From a virus (taxonomy: Duplodnaviria > Heunggongvirae > Uroviricota > Caudoviricetes), in the IMG/VR virus record IMGVR_UViG_3300044535_000502: a stretch of 26,097 nucleotides of DNA; one strand, written 5' to 3'. The position numbers were made by a program, and so were the translations under genes. Below, in pieces: positions 3,052 to 26,097 of the stretch (its first letter is position 1; every line of letters starts with the position of its first letter). The notes under the pieces are model-generated. The model had not been told where the DNA came from. It was given only the letters and a program-made list of their open reading frames with translations, and made no database searches.

Positions 3052-3059
3052 TATAAATA
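3052..3059 (+). promoter_or_regulatory. T4-type late promoter TATAAATA (gp13)
   Basis: Exact gp55-dependent consensus, 25 nt upstream of the gp13 ATG. Confidence 0.85.
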
Positions 3060-16812: not shown

Positions 16813-16820
16813 TATAAATA
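16813..16820 (+). promoter_or_regulatory. T4-type late promoter TATAAATA (gp3)
   Basis: Exact consensus between the gp23 terminator and the gp3 ATG (5 nt upstream, with no clear RBS, so the mRNA may be nearly leaderless). Confidence 0.8.
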
Positions 16821-16825
16821 GTATC

Positions 16826-17362
16826 ATGACAAGTATAGCACTATCAAACACACCGGACAATCAGAATTTTCTACATCCGAACAAGTTTCACTTGACGTTC
16901 AGTAGGGTTCCTAACGTACAGTTCTTTTGTCAATCGGTATCAGTTCCTGGCATTTCATTGGGTGAGATTCCAATTGCAACACCATTTGTGGAGATGTATT
17001 CACCTGGTGAAAAAGCAATATACGATATCATGAACGTGACTTTTGCTATAGATGAAAAGATGTCCTCTTGGCTAGAGATTCATAATTGGATCAGAGGCAT
17101 GACTTTCCCAGAAAACTTTGAGGATTATAAAAATTTATCCAAGCAAAGTAAGTACGCAAACAAAATACAGCCACAGTTTTCGGATGCAACATTGACTGTG
17201 TATTCATCATCGTTTACACCTCTTGTCAGATTCAATTTCTTTGATGCATTCCCAACGTCACTATCATCCTTTGTGCTGTCCACACAAGACACACCAGACA
17301 ATGTATTGACTGCTGATGCTTCAATCAGATTTACCTATTATAACATTGAAAAACTGACCTAA
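16826..17362 (+). CDS. gp3: Tail tube terminator / tail completion protein gp3 (178 aa)
   Basis: 'NQNFLHPNKF', 'VQFFCQSVSVPGISLGE', 'FAIDEKMSSWLEIHNWI' and 'FFDAFPTSLS'; a gp19-like fold protein after gp23, as in cyanophage-type T4-like genomes. Confidence 0.85.
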   Translation: MTSIALSNTPDNQNFLHPNKFHLTFSRVPNVQFFCQSVSVPGISLGEIPIATPFVEMYSPGEKAIYDIMNVTFAIDEKMSSWLEIHNWIRGMTFPENFEDYKNLSKQSKYANKIQPQFSDATLTVYSSSFTPLVRFNFFDAFPTSLSSFVLSTQDTPDNVLTADASIRFTYYNIEKLT

Positions 17363-20340: not shown

Positions 20341-20802
20341 ATGGAGTTCAATATGCTATCTTTACCTGACGACATGACTGGAAAGCCAGTCGGATTCACC
20401 TGTTCCACCTTTGATCTACTACATTCCGGTCACATCCTTATGCTGGCCGAAGCTAAGTCTGTGTGTGATTACCTCATCGTAGGTTTGCAACTGGATCCAT
20501 CCATCGACCGCCCAGATACCAAGAATTCACCTGTGCAATCTGTCGTTGAGAGATTTGTTCAACTGAGTGCAGTCAAATACGTTGATGAAATCATCGTGTA
20601 CCAAACAGAGAAAGATTTGGAAGACTTGTTGATGTTCTTGCCGATCAGCATCCGCATCATTGGTGAAGAGTATGCTGACAAGAATTTCACAGGCAAGAGC
20701 ATCTGTGAACAGCGCAATATCAAAATTTACTACAATCAACGCAGGCACAGTTTTTCAACGACTGAGTTGCGCAATCGTGTTGCGAGTAAAGTTCGCCCAT
20801 GA
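20341..20802 (+). CDS. Cytidylyltransferase-like protein (TagD / glycerol-3-phosphate cytidylyltransferase family, 153 aa; start may be 20353)
   Basis: 'GFTCSTFDLLHSGH' HxGH motif, 'YLIVGL', 'VKYVDEI' and terminal 'SFSTTELR'. Confidence 0.82.
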   Translation: MEFNMLSLPDDMTGKPVGFTCSTFDLLHSGHILMLAEAKSVCDYLIVGLQLDPSIDRPDTKNSPVQSVVERFVQLSAVKYVDEIIVYQTEKDLEDLLMFLPISIRIIGEEYADKNFTGKSICEQRNIKIYYNQRRHSFSTTELRNRVASKVRP

Positions 20803-21866
20803 AAATTGCACTGATAAATGATACTCATGCAGGAGCCAGAGGCGACAGTCTCCTGTTCAACGAATTCTTCTTCAAGTTCTGGGAGAACACATTCTTTCCA
20901 TACCTGAAGCAACATGGCATTACACACATCATTCATCTAGGTGATGTTGTTGATCGCCGCAAGTTCATCAACTATGTTATCCTGAATCAGTGGCGCAAAA
21001 GATTCTTTGACGTTCTGGAGCGTGACGGCATCACCATGGACGTGATCGTGGGCAACCATGATGTGACATACAAGAACACAAATGAAATCAATGCGATGCA
21101 TGAGTTGTTTGATCGCTATACAAACATCAACGTATTCACAACAGCTAAAGACATGACCTATGATGGTCTAAACGTCTTGTTGGTGCCATGGATTAACTCT
21201 AGCAACTATGATCATTCAATGGAGTCTCTGCGAGATACTAAAGCTGAAATCGTCATGGGTCATTTTGAAATTGCTGGCTTTGAAATGGATAAAGGAAACA
21301 TTGCACATGAAGGCTTGGATCGCAAGACTTTTAATCGTTTTGATATGGTACTATCTGGTCATTTCCATCATAAATCTACAGATGGAACCATTACCTACCT
21401 TGGAAATCAATACGAGATCACCTGGATTGATTACGGTGATCAACGAGGATTCCACATCTTTGATACCAACACAAGAGACTTGACATTTGTTGCGAATCCA
21501 TATAAAATGTTTCACAAGATCATATACGATGACACTCAGCAAGATTTTGCTTTTTGGAACGCATATGATTTTGATCAATACGCAAACACTTTCGTGAAGG
21601 TTATCGTTGCTAACAAACAGAATGCATACATGTTTGATACAGTGATTGACAACCTTCATAAAGGTGGTGTCGCAGACGTGGCTGTCGTTGAAGATTTCAC
21701 AGATACAATCATTGACGATGGCGACTTGGTTGATCAAGCTGAGGATACTATGACGATTCTATCAAAGTACATTGATGGATTAGCAACAAACGTTGACTCA
21801 ACAAAGCTAAAAGGTCTTATGCGTGAACTCTACGTTGAGTCACTAAACGTTGAAATTATTGAATGA
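20799..21866 (+). CDS. gp47: Recombination endonuclease subunit gp47 (Mre11/SbcD-like, 355 aa)
   Basis: Metallophosphoesterase motifs DTH, GDVVDR, GNHD, GHF and SGHFH. Confidence 0.95.
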   Translation: MKIALINDTHAGARGDSLLFNEFFFKFWENTFFPYLKQHGITHIIHLGDVVDRRKFINYVILNQWRKRFFDVLERDGITMDVIVGNHDVTYKNTNEINAMHELFDRYTNINVFTTAKDMTYDGLNVLLVPWINSSNYDHSMESLRDTKAEIVMGHFEIAGFEMDKGNIAHEGLDRKTFNRFDMVLSGHFHHKSTDGTITYLGNQYEITWIDYGDQRGFHIFDTNTRDLTFVANPYKMFHKIIYDDTQQDFAFWNAYDFDQYANTFVKVIVANKQNAYMFDTVIDNLHKGGVADVAVVEDFTDTIIDDGDLVDQAEDTMTILSKYIDGLATNVDSTKLKGLMRELYVESLNVEIIE

Positions 21867-23575
21867 TTTTCTTTAGAACAATTAGATTTAAAAACTTCCT
21901 GTCAACTGGCAATTACTGGACAGAAATCAAGTTAGACAATTCTCCAAACACACTGGTTGTCGGCACTAATGGTGCTGGCAAATCCACTATGCTGGACGCA
22001 TTGTGCTATGTGTTGTTTGGTAAAGCATTCCGCAACATCAATAAGCCACAGTTGGTGAACTCCATCAATATGAAAGACTGTGTTGTTGAGTGTGAATTCA
22101 CCATTGGCACAAAGCAATACAAGATTGTACGTGGAATAAAGCCAACAGTCTTTCAGATTTTCGTCAATGGCGAACTGATGAATCAGGATGCAGCATCAAG
22201 AGACTATCAGGAAACACTTGAGAAACAGATTCTGAAACTGAATTACAAGTCGTTCACGCAGATTGTCATTCTTGGATCAGCATCCTTTGTGCCGTTTATG
22301 CAGTTGTCTGCTGCTGATCGTAGAGCAATCATTGAAGACTTGCTGGACATCCAAATCTTCTCCACAATGAACACTGTGCTGAAAGACAAAATCAGCACAA
22401 ACAAAGATTCTATTTCTTCCAACAAGCACAACATTGAACTGACAACTTCAAAATATGACATGCAGAACAGTCATATTTCAAAGTTGAAACAGAACAATGA
22501 TGACATGATTAGTGAAAAGAATCGTGAAATTGGTGTAGTTCTTTTGCAGATGGAGACAGTACAATCTGTCATTGAAACTCTGAATGCTGAGGTTCAACAC
22601 TTGCAAGCTGGAATTGTTGACCGTGATGTTATTGAAGGTAAGATAAAAAAGCTGCACCAGTTTGAAACAAAGATTGAAACCAATCTGAGTAAGCATAAGA
22701 AAGACTTGAAGTTCTTCCATGATAGTGATAGTTGCCCAACTTGCAGACAAGAGATTCAGCAAGACTTCAAAGAGCAACAAATATCCACACTATCTGGTGC
22801 ATCAAAGCAAATGTCTGATGGTCTTGAGAAAATTGCGACTGAGATATCCGAGCAACAAAACAGACTGAATGAAATCATTCGTGTGTCTAACGAGGTTCGT
22901 GTTCGCCAAGTAAGCCTCGCATCAAACAATGCGACAATCATTGAGACAAACAAATACATCAATCGACTTCAAAAAGAGATTGCATCACTCTCCTCAACAA
23001 AGGATGATTTGGATGCAGAGAACTTGAAACTGAATGACTTGCGTAATAAGCTGTCTGCATTGACTGATGAAAAGCAAGCATTGATTGAAGAAAAAACATA
23101 TCTTGATGCCGCATCCGTTCTGTTGAAAGACACTGGTATCAAGACTAAGATCATCAAACAATATCTACCAATCATCAACAAATTGGTGAATAAGTATCTG
23201 GCTTCACTAGACTTCTTTGTCAACTTCAATTTGGATGAGTCATTCAAAGAAACAATCAAGTCTAGGCACCGTGATGAATTTAGTTACGCATCCTTCAGTG
23301 AAGGTGAGAAACAACGAATTGACATGGCACTTATGTTGACATGGAGAGCGGTTGCTAAGTTGAAGAACTCAACAAACACCAACTTACTGATTCTGGATGA
23401 AGTGTTTGATTCATCACTAGATACAAACGGAACAGATTATCTGATGACGATTCTACAGATGCTAGAGGATGTCAATCTGTTTGTTATCAGCCACAAGGGT
23501 GATATTTTACAAGATAAGTTTAGAAATCTTATAAGGTTTGAGAAGGTCAATAATTTTTCGAGGATTGCGAGGTGA
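21863..23575 (+). CDS. gp46: Recombination endonuclease subunit gp46 (Rad50/SbcC-like ATPase, 570 aa)
   Basis: Walker A GTNGAGKST, zinc hook CPTC, signature FSEGEK, Walker B LILDEVFD and ISHK. Confidence 0.95.
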   Translation: MIFFRTIRFKNFLSTGNYWTEIKLDNSPNTLVVGTNGAGKSTMLDALCYVLFGKAFRNINKPQLVNSINMKDCVVECEFTIGTKQYKIVRGIKPTVFQIFVNGELMNQDAASRDYQETLEKQILKLNYKSFTQIVILGSASFVPFMQLSAADRRAIIEDLLDIQIFSTMNTVLKDKISTNKDSISSNKHNIELTTSKYDMQNSHISKLKQNNDDMISEKNREIGVVLLQMETVQSVIETLNAEVQHLQAGIVDRDVIEGKIKKLHQFETKIETNLSKHKKDLKFFHDSDSCPTCRQEIQQDFKEQQISTLSGASKQMSDGLEKIATEISEQQNRLNEIIRVSNEVRVRQVSLASNNATIIETNKYINRLQKEIASLSSTKDDLDAENLKLNDLRNKLSALTDEKQALIEEKTYLDAASVLLKDTGIKTKIIKQYLPIINKLVNKYLASLDFFVNFNLDESFKETIKSRHRDEFSYASFSEGEKQRIDMALMLTWRAVAKLKNSTNTNLLILDEVFDSSLDTNGTDYLMTILQMLEDVNLFVISHKGDILQDKFRNLIRFEKVNNFSRIAR

Positions 23576-23772
23576 GTATGGAAGGAGATTACACCGTGCT
23601 GAAATCTCTTAGTGAGTATAGCAATGGAGCAAAGTCTGCTCAGATTTTTTTAGTCAATGGAAAACATAAGTATATGGTACTTTATTATGATGCAGATACT
23701 GACTATAATCATGCTGAGTATTTTATGAAATATGAAAAAGCCGAAGGATGCGCTGAAGGATGGACACGATGA
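23572..23772 (+). CDS. Small hypothetical protein (64-66 aa; alternative ATG at 23578)
   Basis: Fills the gap between gp46 and def, with overlapping start/stop codons at both ends. Confidence 0.65.
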   Translation: MSMEGDYTVLKSLSEYSNGAKSAQIFLVNGKHKYMVLYYDADTDYNHAEYFMKYEKAEGCAEGWTR

Positions 23773-24341
23773 ATGACAATGACGTTATAACAATTAATAC
23801 CAATTCACCAACAAAAGTTGTTGAAGAGGTTGTTTCAATTTTGCCCATACTAGCTGAGGGACATCCTAAGCTATCACAGGTCATGCCTGATTTTGATATC
23901 ACTCAAATCATGCAACCAGGCATACAAAAATTTATTCGCCAACTGCAAAAGACACAAGCCGCATATAGTGGTCTTGGTTTGTCTGCGAATCAAGTCGGCA
24001 TCGGCTTTAGGGTGTTCGTGATTGGTGATGGTATCGTGTGTTTCAATCCAAAGATTGTTGCCACGCAAGGTGAAGAGATTCGTAAACCTGAAGGTTGCCT
24101 ATCATTTCCTGGCTTGAATTTAAACGTTCCTAGATATGGTAGTATTGATGTTGAGTACTATGATGAAAAAGCAAACTTAGTTACTACACATTTTGAAGGT
24201 CTGACAGCACAAGTTTACCAGCATGAGCTTGACCATATGAACGGTGTAGTGTATACTCAGCATGTTAAACCTGTAGCACTACAAATGGCAAGAAAGCGCC
24301 AAGCTAAGGTAATCAAGAAACACGTTCGGAGAAACAAATGA
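23769..24341 (+). CDS. def: Peptide deformylase (190 aa)
   Basis: All three PDF motifs are present: GLGLSANQVG, EGCLS and QHELDH. Start 23769 is preferred over 23760 (ATGA overlap; AAGGA at 23756-23760). Confidence 0.93.
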   Translation: MNDNDVITINTNSPTKVVEEVVSILPILAEGHPKLSQVMPDFDITQIMQPGIQKFIRQLQKTQAAYSGLGLSANQVGIGFRVFVIGDGIVCFNPKIVATQGEEIRKPEGCLSFPGLNLNVPRYGSIDVEYYDEKANLVTTHFEGLTAQVYQHELDHMNGVVYTQHVKPVALQMARKRQAKVIKKHVRRNK

Positions 24342-24700
24342 CAGATAAAAAAGTTGAAGAAACAACTGAATATGAAAGTTGCCTAGACTTTCAAGCCGAA
24401 GATTACATCGATGTTACCAAATTCATTGATGGTGGTGTGCAAGAAAATTTGATTGCTGAACCAGACGACTCTCTGCTGACTCGTGATCAGATTTGGAAGA
24501 AGCACTGGAAAGGCATGCCGACATATGATCAGAATGATAACCCTCCTTGGAGACAAATCTATCTGAACTTTCGCAGTGAGGAAGACTATAATGAATTTGC
24601 AAAACTTGTTGACCAGAAACTCACTGACAAAACAAAAAGCATCTGGTATCCTAAACTTGAAATTGAAGACAACTCATTGACTCGTTGGATTGTAGAATGA
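24338..24700 (+). CDS. Hypothetical protein (120 aa) coupled to the glycosyltransferase gene
   Basis: ATGA overlaps at both ends; motifs 'WKGMPTYDQ', 'FRSEEDY..FA' and 'KTKSIWYP'. Confidence 0.75.
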   Translation: MTDKKVEETTEYESCLDFQAEDYIDVTKFIDGGVQENLIAEPDDSLLTRDQIWKKHWKGMPTYDQNDNPPWRQIYLNFRSEEDYNEFAKLVDQKLTDKTKSIWYPKLEIEDNSLTRWIVE

Positions 24701-25602
24701 TCATCAACCCAAAACATCCCGTTTACATTATCTCTAAAGGTCGCCATGAATCCATGCTGACCTCTAGGTCTTTGGCTAGAATGAAAGTGCCACACTTCAT
24801 TGCAATTGAGCCACAAGATGAAGAAAATTATGAGAAAGCACTTGATGCATTTGGTATTCGCCCATATGTCACCTTGTTGATTGCACCATTCAGTAATCAT
24901 GGTGATGGTCCAGGTCGTGCAAGAAACTGGTGTTGGGATCATGCGATTTCGATTGGTGCCGAAAAGCATTGGGTTCTTGATGACAACATCACAGACTTCT
25001 ACCGTCTGCAACAAAACAAGCGATATCGTGTTGAGTCTGGAGCTATCTTCAAAGCTGCTGAGGACTTTGTTGATCGTTATGAAAACGTACCAATCTCAGG
25101 CTTTCAATATCGTTTCTTTATTGCACCGAATTCTAAATATCCACCATACGTCACAAACACACGAATCTATTCCTGTTTGTTGATTTCAAATGATTGCAAG
25201 CACCGTTGGCGTGGCCGCTACAATGAAGACACTGATATCTGCTTGCGTGTGTTGAAAGATGGTGATTGTACCATCCAATTCAATGCATTCTTACAAGGTA
25301 AGGCTGCTACACAAACTGTCAAGGGTGGAAACACCGAAGAATTCTACCACAAAGAATTCGCTGATGAGGATGAAAACTTCAAAAAGACTGGCTATAATAG
25401 TAGCGGTACAATCAACAAATCTAAGATGCTTGAGGAAATGCATCCAGACGTTGCAAGAGTTGTTTGGCGCTATGGTAGATGGCACCATTACGTTGACTAC
25501 AATCCATTCAAAAAGAATGAACTGAGATTCAAGCCTGGTGTGGTTCTTCCGGAAGGTGATAATGAGTACGGAATGAAACTGACTCGCAATTGGAAGCCAT
25601 GA
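24697..25602 (+). CDS. GT-A fold glycosyltransferase, TAGT/GREB1-like (candidate DNA base glycosyltransferase, 301 aa)
   Basis: 'PVYIISKGR', 'GPGRARNWCWDHA', DxD-like 'HWVLDDNI', 'YSCLL', 'WRGRYNEDTDICL' and 'GGNT'. Start is ATG 24697 (ATGA overlap), not TTG 24685. Confidence 0.7.
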   Translation: MIINPKHPVYIISKGRHESMLTSRSLARMKVPHFIAIEPQDEENYEKALDAFGIRPYVTLLIAPFSNHGDGPGRARNWCWDHAISIGAEKHWVLDDNITDFYRLQQNKRYRVESGAIFKAAEDFVDRYENVPISGFQYRFFIAPNSKYPPYVTNTRIYSCLLISNDCKHRWRGRYNEDTDICLRVLKDGDCTIQFNAFLQGKAATQTVKGGNTEEFYHKEFADEDENFKKTGYNSSGTINKSKMLEEMHPDVARVVWRYGRWHHYVDYNPFKKNELRFKPGVVLPEGDNEYGMKLTRNWKP

Positions 25603-25639: not shown

Positions 25640-25667
25640 TTGACATTCTTCCTGCACCTGATATAAT
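25640..25667 (+). promoter_or_regulatory. Consensus sigma70 (early-type) promoter TTGACA-N16-TATAAT with extended -10 TG
   Basis: TTGACA at 25640-25645, TG at 25659-25660, TATAAT at 25662-25667; T-rich UP-like region upstream. Confidence 0.8.
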
Positions 25668-25692: not shown

Positions 25693-26097
25693 ATGAATTT
25701 TTCCCAAGAATCTAAGTCGCAGTTGGCCAAGTTGATGGCTACTGAAAACATCCGAGTTGAACACCGCAAGATGCAAACTGCGGCTTTTGACTTGAAGAAT
25801 CGCACACTTTACTGCCCTATCTGGACTGATATGTCTGGTGAACTTTATGATCTATTGCTTGGTCATGAAGTTGGTCACGCATTGGAAACACCTGAAGAAG
25901 GTTGGCACAATGCCGTAACAAGCAAAGACAAAAAGATCAGCCGCAACTTCAAGCATTTTCTGAATGTGGTTGAAGATGCCCGCATCGAAAAGAAAATCAA
26001 GCGCCGCTTTCCTGGTCTCCGTAATTCATTCGTCAAAGCATATGGCGAATTGTTGTCCCGTGACTTTTTCGGTCTCGGTGACCGTGATATCAATACC
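25693..26097 (+). CDS. HExxH metallopeptidase-like protein (CobT/VWA-associated type of T4-like phages), 3'-truncated by the window edge; absent from the ORF track
   Basis: Hand translation MNFSQESKSQLAKLMATENIRVEH...LYDLLLGHEVGHALETP...FLNVVEDARIEKKIKRRFPGL..., open to the window end (135 codons). Confidence 0.8.
   Translation, partial: MNFSQESKSQLAKLMATENIRVEHRKMQTAAFDLKNRTLYCPIWTDMSGELYDLLLGHEVGHALETPEEGWHNAVTSKDKKISRNFKHFLNVVEDARIEKKIKRRFPGLRNSFVKAYGELLSRDFFGLGDRDINT

Follow-up and report, generated by a model that had tools for sequence, protein, structure and literature searches.

A two-gene TAGT-family glycosyltransferase cassette in a T4-like myovirus: a dedicated partner protein and a candidate DNA-modifying role

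Introduction

Glycosyltransferases of the TAGT family (Pfam PF20691) are not foreign to T-even phages, because the family includes the beta-glucosyl-HMC-alpha-glucosyltransferase of T2 and T6, which adds a second glucose to yield gentiobiosyl-hydroxymethylcytosine (gentiobiosyl-hmC) (PMC13216743; PMC13390438). The first of these sources, published in 2026, also describes 'solitary' TAGTs, which are distant relatives and whose function and acceptor it gives as unknown. They are carried, without an alpha- or beta-glucosyltransferase, by over a third of the TAGT-bearing phage genomes (288 of 753). The cassette analysed here belongs to the solitary group. It occupies positions 24338-25602 (plus strand) of a stretch of 26,097 nucleotides, hereafter the window, from a T4-like myovirus (IMG/VR record IMGVR_UViG_3300044535_000502), and it consists of a small open reading frame (ORF1, 120 aa) followed by a glycosyltransferase gene (ORF2, 301 aa). 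The partner module encoded by ORF1, its split and fused states and its fusions to ParB_N domains are not described in the available part of PMC13216743 and are worked out here. More specifically, we add that (i) the enzyme of this branch has two parts, one of them an adaptor domain that no Pfam family covers although it counts 2,943 cluster representatives, (ii) the adaptor is linked to differing DNA or replisome targeting devices across phage lineages and (iii) by sequence search, none of the known routes to a base that could be glycosylated is present in a complete genome from the lineage. Our preference, held with modest confidence, is for a TAGT that has two parts and depends on its partner, and that acts most likely on phage DNA at the replisome, glycosylating an acceptor that comes from no known route.

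The T6 enzyme (YP_010067197.1) and the window glycosyltransferase have in common their Pfam family, a GT-A fold, a T4-like phage and coupling to an upstream gene. They differ in that the T6 protein is a short form of 279 aa that scores 38 bits on PF20691, against 156 for the window enzyme; its start overlaps the end of the gp42 hydroxymethylase gene, and it needs the alpha-glucosyltransferase to supply glucosyl-hmC. No ORF1-type module was found within the 30-kb neighbourhood of the T6 gene, using a hidden Markov model (HMM) of the module that recovers all eight of eight control carriers of long-form TAGTs (in which module and enzyme are fused), and an HMM built from the clade of the window glycosyltransferase fails to detect the T6 TAGT. 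Unlike T6, the lineage studied here has neither gp42 nor an alpha- or beta-glucosyltransferase. The gp55/gp47/gp46 neighbourhood that houses the cassette is nevertheless the one in which T6 carries its alpha-gt gene.

Other glycosyltransferases associated with TET/5mYOX enzymes share the family name and the Pfam core with the window enzyme, and theirs is a post-replicative glycosylation of DNA; indeed, 5mYOX clades are often associated with glycosyltransferases (PMC13229309). Unlike in those systems, no 5mYOX/TET/JBP match and no C5-methylase was found in the source contig (G000, a 33.5-kb IMG/VR fragment, about 19% complete) or in a complete relative (G001: 162,299 bp with direct terminal repeats, CheckV 100%, glycosyltransferase 91% identical). 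A close functional analogy to a TAGT with its partner is offered by a ParB-dependent dioxygenase, the phage thymine dioxygenase 5mYOX176, which needs the ParB-like accessory ParB176 to act on double-stranded DNA (O'Toole et al. 2026; PMC13229309). Both pair an enzyme of DNA-modifying type with a dedicated, co-encoded accessory, and the ParB_N partners of other lineages carry the ORF1 module; the differences are that one enzyme is a dioxygenase and the other a glycosyltransferase, and that ORF1 has an acidic arm of linear motifs where ParB_N sits. Finally, a clamp-tethered DNA glycosyltransferase has a precedent, since the alpha-glucosyltransferase of T4 co-purifies with the sliding clamp gp45 (PMC13216743). 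The likeness to the cassette lies in this tethering and in the shared gene neighbourhood, whereas the T4 enzyme is a GT-B protein that binds the clamp itself and the cassette has a separate adaptor with a putative clamp motif.

The catalytic subunit

By profile and motif evidence, ORF2 (24697-25602 including the stop, plus strand) is a TAGT-family GT-A glycosyltransferase. It matches PF20691 with E 1.6e-45 and 156 bits (curated gathering score 27.5 bits) over profile positions 2-205 of 205, a match that was reproduced in a six-frame search, and it matches phrog_842 ('beta-glucosyl-HMC-alpha-glucosyltransferase') with E 2.6e-48. An alignment of 23 divergent split and fused homologues has invariant columns at S13-K14-x-R16, R76-N77, D95-D96-N97, R174-Y-N-E-D-T179 and G210-G-N212 (residues counted from the ATG at 24697), as well as a conserved C-terminal extension, W..GRWHH.VDY. 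These columns supply the DxD-type metal/donor motif and the catalytic signature that a GT-A enzyme of this family should show. An earlier note on this DNA, made from the sequence alone, had listed five GT-A motifs (YIISKGR, ARNWCWDH, WVLDDNI, GRYNEDTD and GGNT), all of which are present and fall on invariant columns; its TAGT/GREB1-like call agrees with the full-length profile match, and it was right that TAGTs are GT-A enzymes with no homology to the GT-B enzymes of T4. Its label of a 'non-T4 enzyme' is misleading, given that PF20691 includes the T2/T6 enzyme, albeit as a short and distant member that does not carry the partner module.

The two-gene pair that the same note had proposed is real, in that both plus-strand open reading frames were found, with one revision to the start of the second. 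This start is probably 24697, because the TGA stop of ORF1 shares bases with the ATG at that position (GAATGATC; ATGA overlap at 24697-24700, plus strand) and because all alignments of glycosyltransferase homologues begin there; a TTG at 24685, which would give 305 aa, was rejected on the same two grounds. The junction recurs in most relatives. An assembly frameshift between the two genes was likewise rejected, because an ORF1 homologue stands 5′ of the glycosyltransferase in 80 of 80 related IMG/VR loci, most of them with the ATGA overlap, and because this arrangement is kept across relatives in which ORF1, the faster evolving of the two, is 36-94% identical (76-98% for the glycosyltransferase). 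On the evidence of this gene layout, the two genes are translationally coupled via the overlap.

For the fold, a model of the fused homologue P0033 was used, the glycosyltransferase part of which is 57% identical to the window enzyme. Fold searches with residues ~163-465 of the model place this part in the GT-A fold: VIA gave Z 9.5 against GnT-I (1fo9; rmsd, the root-mean-square deviation, 4.8 over 184 aligned residues) and Z 8.7 against both mannosylglycerate synthase (2bo4) and POMGnT1 (5ggf). Foldseek returned only weak GT-A matches, and neither Foldseek nor a sequence search of the PDB found a close solved relative. Homologues in phages of Aeromonas, Tenacibaculum, Vibrio and Pectobacterium are 44-53% identical to the window glycosyltransferase.

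The partner protein

ORF1 (24338-24700, plus strand) has no named family in Pfam, PHROG or NCBIfam and no named relative in the ESM Atlas; it carries no ParB_N domain, and its sole Pfam match is a chance one of 14 bits. Its identity comes from the company that it keeps. In tblastn searches of cultured phages, ORF1 homologues lie directly 5′ of the TAGT match and inside one annotated gene, among others in the Aeromonas phages Aeh1 (fused protein of 399 aa), Ah1 and phiAS5 and in Tenacibaculum phage PTm1 (471 aa). Fusions of an N-terminal module to a TAGT are found in Aeh1, PTm1, 65, GD1, 1.076.O, POP12 and Kuja, and all cultured carriers have the fused state. Distant stand-alone modules, used as queries, have matches at TAGT loci only (65, avDM6, henriette, 1.076.O and 1.124.O). 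The 2,943 cluster representatives mentioned above were recovered at E <= 1e-3 when a profile of 32 ORF1 homologues was run against 1.84 billion representative proteins; they are mostly stand-alone proteins of 80-125 aa, and seven of the ten longest matches (P0033, P0055 and P0070 among them) are TAGT fusions.

A second line of evidence comes from a different kind of partner. In P0108, the module stands behind a ParB_N domain (30.1 bits; cut-off 26.3 bits), and in a separate, independent set of loci, for which this protein was the seed, a TAGT open reading frame (E 1e-103 to 1e-144) lies directly downstream in 28 of 28 module-bearing loci; the set also holds two ParB-like homologues without the module, and these are without a TAGT as well. 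The TAGT fusions, the unbroken adjacency in the 80 related loci and these 28 independent loci argue that ORF1 is an accessory domain dedicated to TAGTs, here detached from the enzyme, as far as comparative evidence of this kind can tell, and they bear out the earlier view of the small gene as a coupled, dedicated partner. Regions that resemble a helix-turn-helix (HTH) stand at the arm position in P0040 and P0053 (visual reading only). Because ParB_N and HTH-like domains replace the arm of ORF1 elsewhere, it is suggested that a targeting function has been added to a docking module. Two further kinds of fusion were set aside. P0111 had been read by eye as ParB-like, which neither Pfam nor a PDB sequence search confirmed, and no relatives of it were found among viral contigs; fusions to HNH (P0146; by eye only) and LAGLIDADG (P0082) domains were discounted as probable homing-endonuclease insertions.

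In an alignment of 32 sequences (A1), ORF1 has an acidic N-terminal arm with two linear motifs, followed by the partner module, all on the plus strand. Motif A (24353-24388) reads V-x-E-[ST]-[TS]-x-Y-[ED]-[SN]-h-h-[GD], in which E8 and Y12 are invariant. Motif B (24410-24430), a candidate docking motif for gp45, reads DVTKFID here and [ST]-L-x-[DE]-F-[LM]-[GD] in relatives; it includes alignment columns 43, 46 and 47, in each of which 97% of the residues are hydrophobic, amid an otherwise high-entropy acidic arm. The module (24494-24697) extends from W53 to the C-terminus of ORF1, with the pattern W.KHW.GMPE..NPP..h.h.FR..EDY..FAKL..Q.LT.KTKSIW.P...L.RW and the invariant residues W57, M60, P61, F78, R79, F87, K100, W103, P105, R116 and W117. 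In P0033, modelled with fused, ORF1-only and glycosyltransferase-only alignment rows (mean predicted local distance difference test score, pLDDT, 69.8), the core of the module is a beta-alpha-beta unit that occurs twice (residues 31-63 and 109-140; pLDDT 92-95) ahead of the GT-A core. The window ORF1 has one such unit only, so on the model it may pair with a second copy of itself or with the glycosyltransferase.

In two of the cultured phages, a small open reading frame directly 3′ of the fused TAGT gene matches the HMM of the ORF1 module: Aeh1p092 (L003:6879-7091) with E 6.7e-5 and POP12_147 (L111:5837-6034) with E 3.5e-7. This suggests an extra, free beta-alpha-beta unit alongside the fused enzyme.

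Proposed mode of action

In the DNA-directed reading that we prefer, the 301-aa protein is the catalytic GT-A subunit, drawing on a nucleotide-sugar donor, and the 120-aa protein its dedicated adaptor. The C-terminal beta-alpha-beta module of the adaptor is the domain with which long-form TAGTs begin, and it presumably docks on, or completes, the glycosyltransferase. Motif B in the acidic arm would tether the enzyme to the replisome via gp45, and fresh phage DNA would be glycosylated during or shortly after replication. Such tethering would parallel that of the T4 alpha-glucosyltransferase to gp45 and the ParB-type partners of other phage DNA-modifying enzymes, while the enzymes inserted into the cassette in relatives (a GT-B protein, a second TAGT, FkbM and class-I methyltransferases) would elaborate the sugar. 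There is a precedent within the family for a DNA acceptor, as the T2/T6 TAGT and the 5mYOX-associated glycosyltransferases act on DNA.

The case for the clamp is one of likeness between peptides. The polymerase and gp55 of T4 and RB69 end in tails that are established clamp-binding peptides. The gp43 tails of the present lineage read KTNSLDAFF, KTNSLDDFF and KSNLLGFF, those elsewhere ASLSDLFGDM (Aeh1), VSLEDLFDF (65) and ASIDAFFG (henriette), and the gp55 tail encoded in the window reads GLEKFMEPD. Motif B, which appears as STLDAFLSE, ASLADFLDE, PTLEDFIE or ATLSEFFGE in relatives and as DVTKFIDG in the window, follows a pattern like that of these gp43 and gp55 tails. The genes for gp45 and gp44 lie ~5.5 kb downstream of the cassette on the same contig, and Sommer et al. 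(2004) are reported to have found that the alpha-glucosyltransferase of T4 binds this clamp. We regard Motif B as a candidate gp45-binding motif, and the arm looks, from the sequences compared, like a targeting device peculiar to the lineage and added to a docking module that is universal. The earlier suggestion of a targeting or clamp-binding subunit has gained indirect support from the fusions and from the tail-like Motif B for its targeting part, and its clamp-binding part stays at the level of a candidate.

A number of observations, in this paragraph and in those on the acceptor below, weigh against the DNA-directed reading. Motif B is short, and its strict pattern has ~2 chance occurrences per 49,600-residue proteome (the strict expression missed the gp43 tail and the ORF1 of G001, and this count gives the chance rate only). 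The window version (V-T-K-F-I) is weaker than those of relatives, and Motif B is internal in ORF1, whereas the clamp peptides are terminal. The fused long forms of 65, GD1 and 1.076.O are without the acidic arm, and clamp docking is therefore not a universal role of the module. Moreover, ORF1 modelled alone with AlphaFold2 (AF2) gives a poor model, with a pLDDT of 61.

The acceptor base

The remaining difficulty is the acceptor. The thymidylate synthase/hydroxymethylase family PF00303 was found neither in the source contig nor in G001 or nine partial relatives, in a search that recovers gp42 of T6 at 56.2 bits together with its intron-split td gene. The TET/JBP family PF12851 has no match in the source contig or in five long relatives including G001, in a search made without a positive control. 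Alpha-glucosyltransferase (PF11440) has no match above the cut-off in ten relatives including G001 (T6 control, 859 bits), and beta-glucosyltransferase (PF09198) none in G001, this search again having no positive control. Also missing from G001 are 2OG-Fe(II) oxygenases of PF13640 and C5-methylases (PF00145). The only oxygenase candidate in G001 is one PF13759 gene, which lies ~67 kb from the cassette and is missing from a second relative that is 85% complete (G002).

Two routes that do not involve hydroxymethyl pyrimidines fared no better. A 7-deazaguanine route was rejected, as no PF01702 (TGT/DpdA) match was found in G001. A 2-aminoadenine (Z-genome) system had been suggested by a PF18909 gene on the contig; no PF00709 (PurZ) match was found in relatives including G001, so the PF18909 gene is not part of such a system.

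ThyX is present in relatives, G001 included. Each cultured carrier of a long form has a single high-scoring thymidylate-synthase gene, without a clear second copy of gp42 type, while no thymidylate-synthase gene was found in 1.076.O (a 48-kb partial record); PTm1 has an extra, stop-interrupted copy of 37 bits, and the second match in Aeh1 is below the cut-off. The earlier note had put forward 5-hydroxymethylcytosine or 5-hydroxymethyluracil (5hmC or 5hmU) as the acceptor. Since a gene of the thymidylate-synthase superfamily or of TET/JBP type was found in neither the 33.5-kb contig nor the complete 162-kb relative, an absence that the note itself had named as evidence to the contrary, an acceptor made by a thymidylate-synthase-type hydroxymethylase or by a recognisable TET/JBP enzyme is not supported for this lineage at the level of gene content.

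Alternative acceptors and roles

The most serious alternative, which we hold to be possible but not probable, is that the pair glycosylates a protein, either of the virion (capsid or tail) or a phage or host protein during host takeover, with ORF1 as the substrate-recognition subunit. To our knowledge, sugar O-methyltransferases such as those inserted into some relatives of the cassette have no precedent in DNA glycosylation; together with the inserted GT-B protein and second TAGT, they are typical of loci that build glycans. The fused gene of Vibrio phage 1.076.O is flanked by the portal gene and by head-morphogenesis genes. The complete relative has no pathway to an acceptor base, and the contig carries elsewhere an Anp1-like putative GT-A protein and a possible sulfation pair. 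The basis of this alternative is GREB1, whose glycosyltransferase domain is homologous to that of the window enzyme without being a close relative: GREB1 is a cytoplasmic protein O-GlcNAc transferase (transferring O-linked N-acetylglucosamine) and O-GlcNAcylates oestrogen receptor alpha (ER-alpha; PMC7968844). On the other side, the cassette sits in an early or middle chain of recombination genes without a late promoter, other phages have its partner module joined to ParB_N, the characterised phage members of the TAGT family act on DNA, and Motif B resembles the clamp-binding tails of replisome proteins.

Rather improbable, in our judgement, is an acceptor of 5hmC or 5hmU whose hydroxymethylating enzyme lies elsewhere or is too divergent to be recognised (e.g. 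the PF13759 oxygenase or a repurposed ThyX). It would fit the overlap of the T6 TAGT start with the end of gp42 and the frequent association of 5mYOX clades with glycosyltransferases, and it could draw on the uncontrolled TET/JBP search, on the single PF13759 gene of G001 and on the low completeness (~19%) of the genome from which the window comes. Against it stand the absence of PF00303 from G001 and the nine partial relatives in a search that detects T6 gp42 at 56 bits, the lack of a C5-methylase to feed a TET enzyme, the distance of the PF13759 gene from the cassette and its absence from G002, the cultured long-form carriers without a clear gp42-like second thymidylate-synthase gene, and the failure to find an alpha- or beta-glucosyltransferase for the first sugar (the alpha-glucosyltransferase search being controlled on T6).

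That ORF1 acts as a chaperone or makes up a second half of the catalytic fold, being needed for stability of the glycosyltransferase and having an arm that serves, e.g., as a DNA mimic or anti-defence decoy, strikes us as very unlikely: it would accommodate the armless fusions of many phages, the poor model of ORF1 alone beside two confident beta-alpha-beta units inside the fusion, the small module-like open reading frames after the glycosyltransferase in Aeh1 and POP12 and the strong acidity of the arm, but ParB_N and HTH-like domains replace the arm in other lineages, and Motifs A and B are kept as discrete linear motifs and not as general acidity.

Returning to the DNA-directed reading, a broader proposition can be attached to it, which we regard as doubtful: a widespread, partner-dependent branch of TAGTs would glycosylate phage DNA without a pre-installed hydroxymethyl or hydroxy pyrimidine, via interchangeable clamp-arm and ParB_N adaptors. 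The acceptor in such a chemistry could be a canonical base, another position of the DNA or the product of an unrecognised enzyme, and as adaptors T4-like phages would use arms docking on the sliding clamp, other phages ParB_N clamps. If true, this would make a new class of hypermodified DNA, found in myoviruses that abound in aquatic habitats. More generally, should the target be DNA, the abundant T4-like phages of freshwater and the sea would carry a DNA modification that has not been described, with a bearing on the evasion of restriction and CRISPR, on sequencing bias in viromes and on enzyme tools.

Gene neighbourhood and cassette variants

The cassette ends an unbroken chain of overlapping genes that runs from 20341 to 25602 on the plus strand. 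The genes before it (20341-24341) encode a nucleotidyltransferase, gp47, gp46, a 66-aa open reading frame and a peptide deformylase, and ORF1 and the glycosyltransferase follow. No T4-type late promoter (TATAAATA) was found within 19-26 kb of the window; those present, at 3052, 14368 and 16813, precede structural genes only. The 3′ boundary of the unit is marked by a perfect extended sigma-70-type promoter (25640-25667, plus strand; TTGACA, 16-nt spacer, TATAAT and TG extension, 12 of 12 matches), which stands directly after the glycosyltransferase stop and serves a gene for a 776-aa HExxH protein. Because the chain is without a late promoter, the cassette would be expressed early or in the middle period, together with the recombination genes.

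The first gene of the chain (20341-20799, between gp55 and gp47) encodes a 153-aa nucleotidyltransferase that is like RfaE domain II and TagD (TIGR02199, E 8e-23, far below the cut-off). As a dedicated maker of the sugar donor it was rejected: many phages of Streptomyces, Synechococcus and Vibrio carry homologues without a TAGT, and the gene is therefore not specific to the cassette.

In relatives, further genes are inserted between ORF1 and the glycosyltransferase, namely those for a GT-B protein (L039), an FkbM methyltransferase (L060), a class-I methyltransferase (L073), a divergent second TAGT (L062, L066 and L085) and a 351-aa protein without a Pfam match (L069). As read from these gene contents, the cassette is a variable glycan-building unit. 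The surroundings of the fused genes vary too. In henriette and GD1 they lie amid replication genes, and the Vibrio phage Kuja (Ackermannviridae) has two tandem long forms near the genes for the single-stranded DNA-binding protein (SSB) and ribonucleotide reductase. The tandem TAGTs of Kuja (L110:4608-7296; 452 and 446 aa) each have their own module and adjoin a gene annotated as 'DNA end protector'.

The phage and its contig

By homology annotation, the window holds the core genes of a T4-like myovirus for structure and replication, with homologues of gp13 to gp23 (13, 14, 15, 16, 17, 18, 19, 20, 21, 22 and 23), UvsY, a UvsW-like helicase, gp55, gp47 and gp46. The major capsid protein is 62-64% identical to its counterparts in the cyanophages P-RSM6 and S-H38 and the pelagiphage HTVC008M, and megablast found no nucleotide-level relatives of this DNA among cultured phages. 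Positions 504-26097 of the window map to G000:C1:7926-33519; bases 1-503 lie beyond the end of the record, and the open reading frame at 30-947 crosses this boundary. The contig continues for 7.9 kb beyond the window, with genes for a CobT-like protein, a CobS-like AAA ATPase, the Anp1-like putative GT-A protein, the PF18909 protein, gp45 and gp44.

The 776-aa HExxH protein, encoded by window positions 25693-26097 and L002:6000-8330 (minus strand), belongs to phrog_459 ('peptidase') and has a faint CobT match. It is followed by a 403-aa AAA_5/CobS-like ATPase (L002:4730-5941, minus strand; phrog_249), and the two genes form a cobS/cobT-like pair typical of cyanophage-type myoviruses. About 4 kb past the end of the window, a 271-aa protein of phrog_1574 (L002:3469-4284, minus strand) has a sub-threshold match to Anp1, a GT-A mannosyltransferase, and its neighbours in the ESM Atlas are labelled 'putative Anp1 / nucleotide-diphospho-sugar transferase'. 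Adjoining the PF18909 gene and gp45, it is a candidate second glycosyltransferase. The PF18909 protein itself (L002:3119-3469, minus strand; directly 5′ of gp45) is a 116-aa domain of dATP/dGTP diphosphohydrolase type (E 1.2e-37; phrog_801).

At the other end of the window, two genes lie directly 5′ of the gp13 block and may form a phage pair for sulfation and for the synthesis of 3′-phosphoadenosine-5′-phosphosulfate (PAPS). One (30-944) encodes a 305-aa protein of phrog_27463 whose N-terminal part weakly matches the NoeE sulfotransferase (E 4.6e-6); the other (1349-2221) encodes a 291-aa protein in which a P-loop domain like that of adenosine-5′-phosphosulfate (APS) kinase (PF01583, E 4e-12) is fused to an NMNAT/cytidylyltransferase-like domain. 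Finally, a second gp19-like tail-tube paralogue (16826-17362; phrog_45, E 8.5e-32) lies 3′ of the major capsid gene; the TATAAATA late promoter at 16813 is its own.

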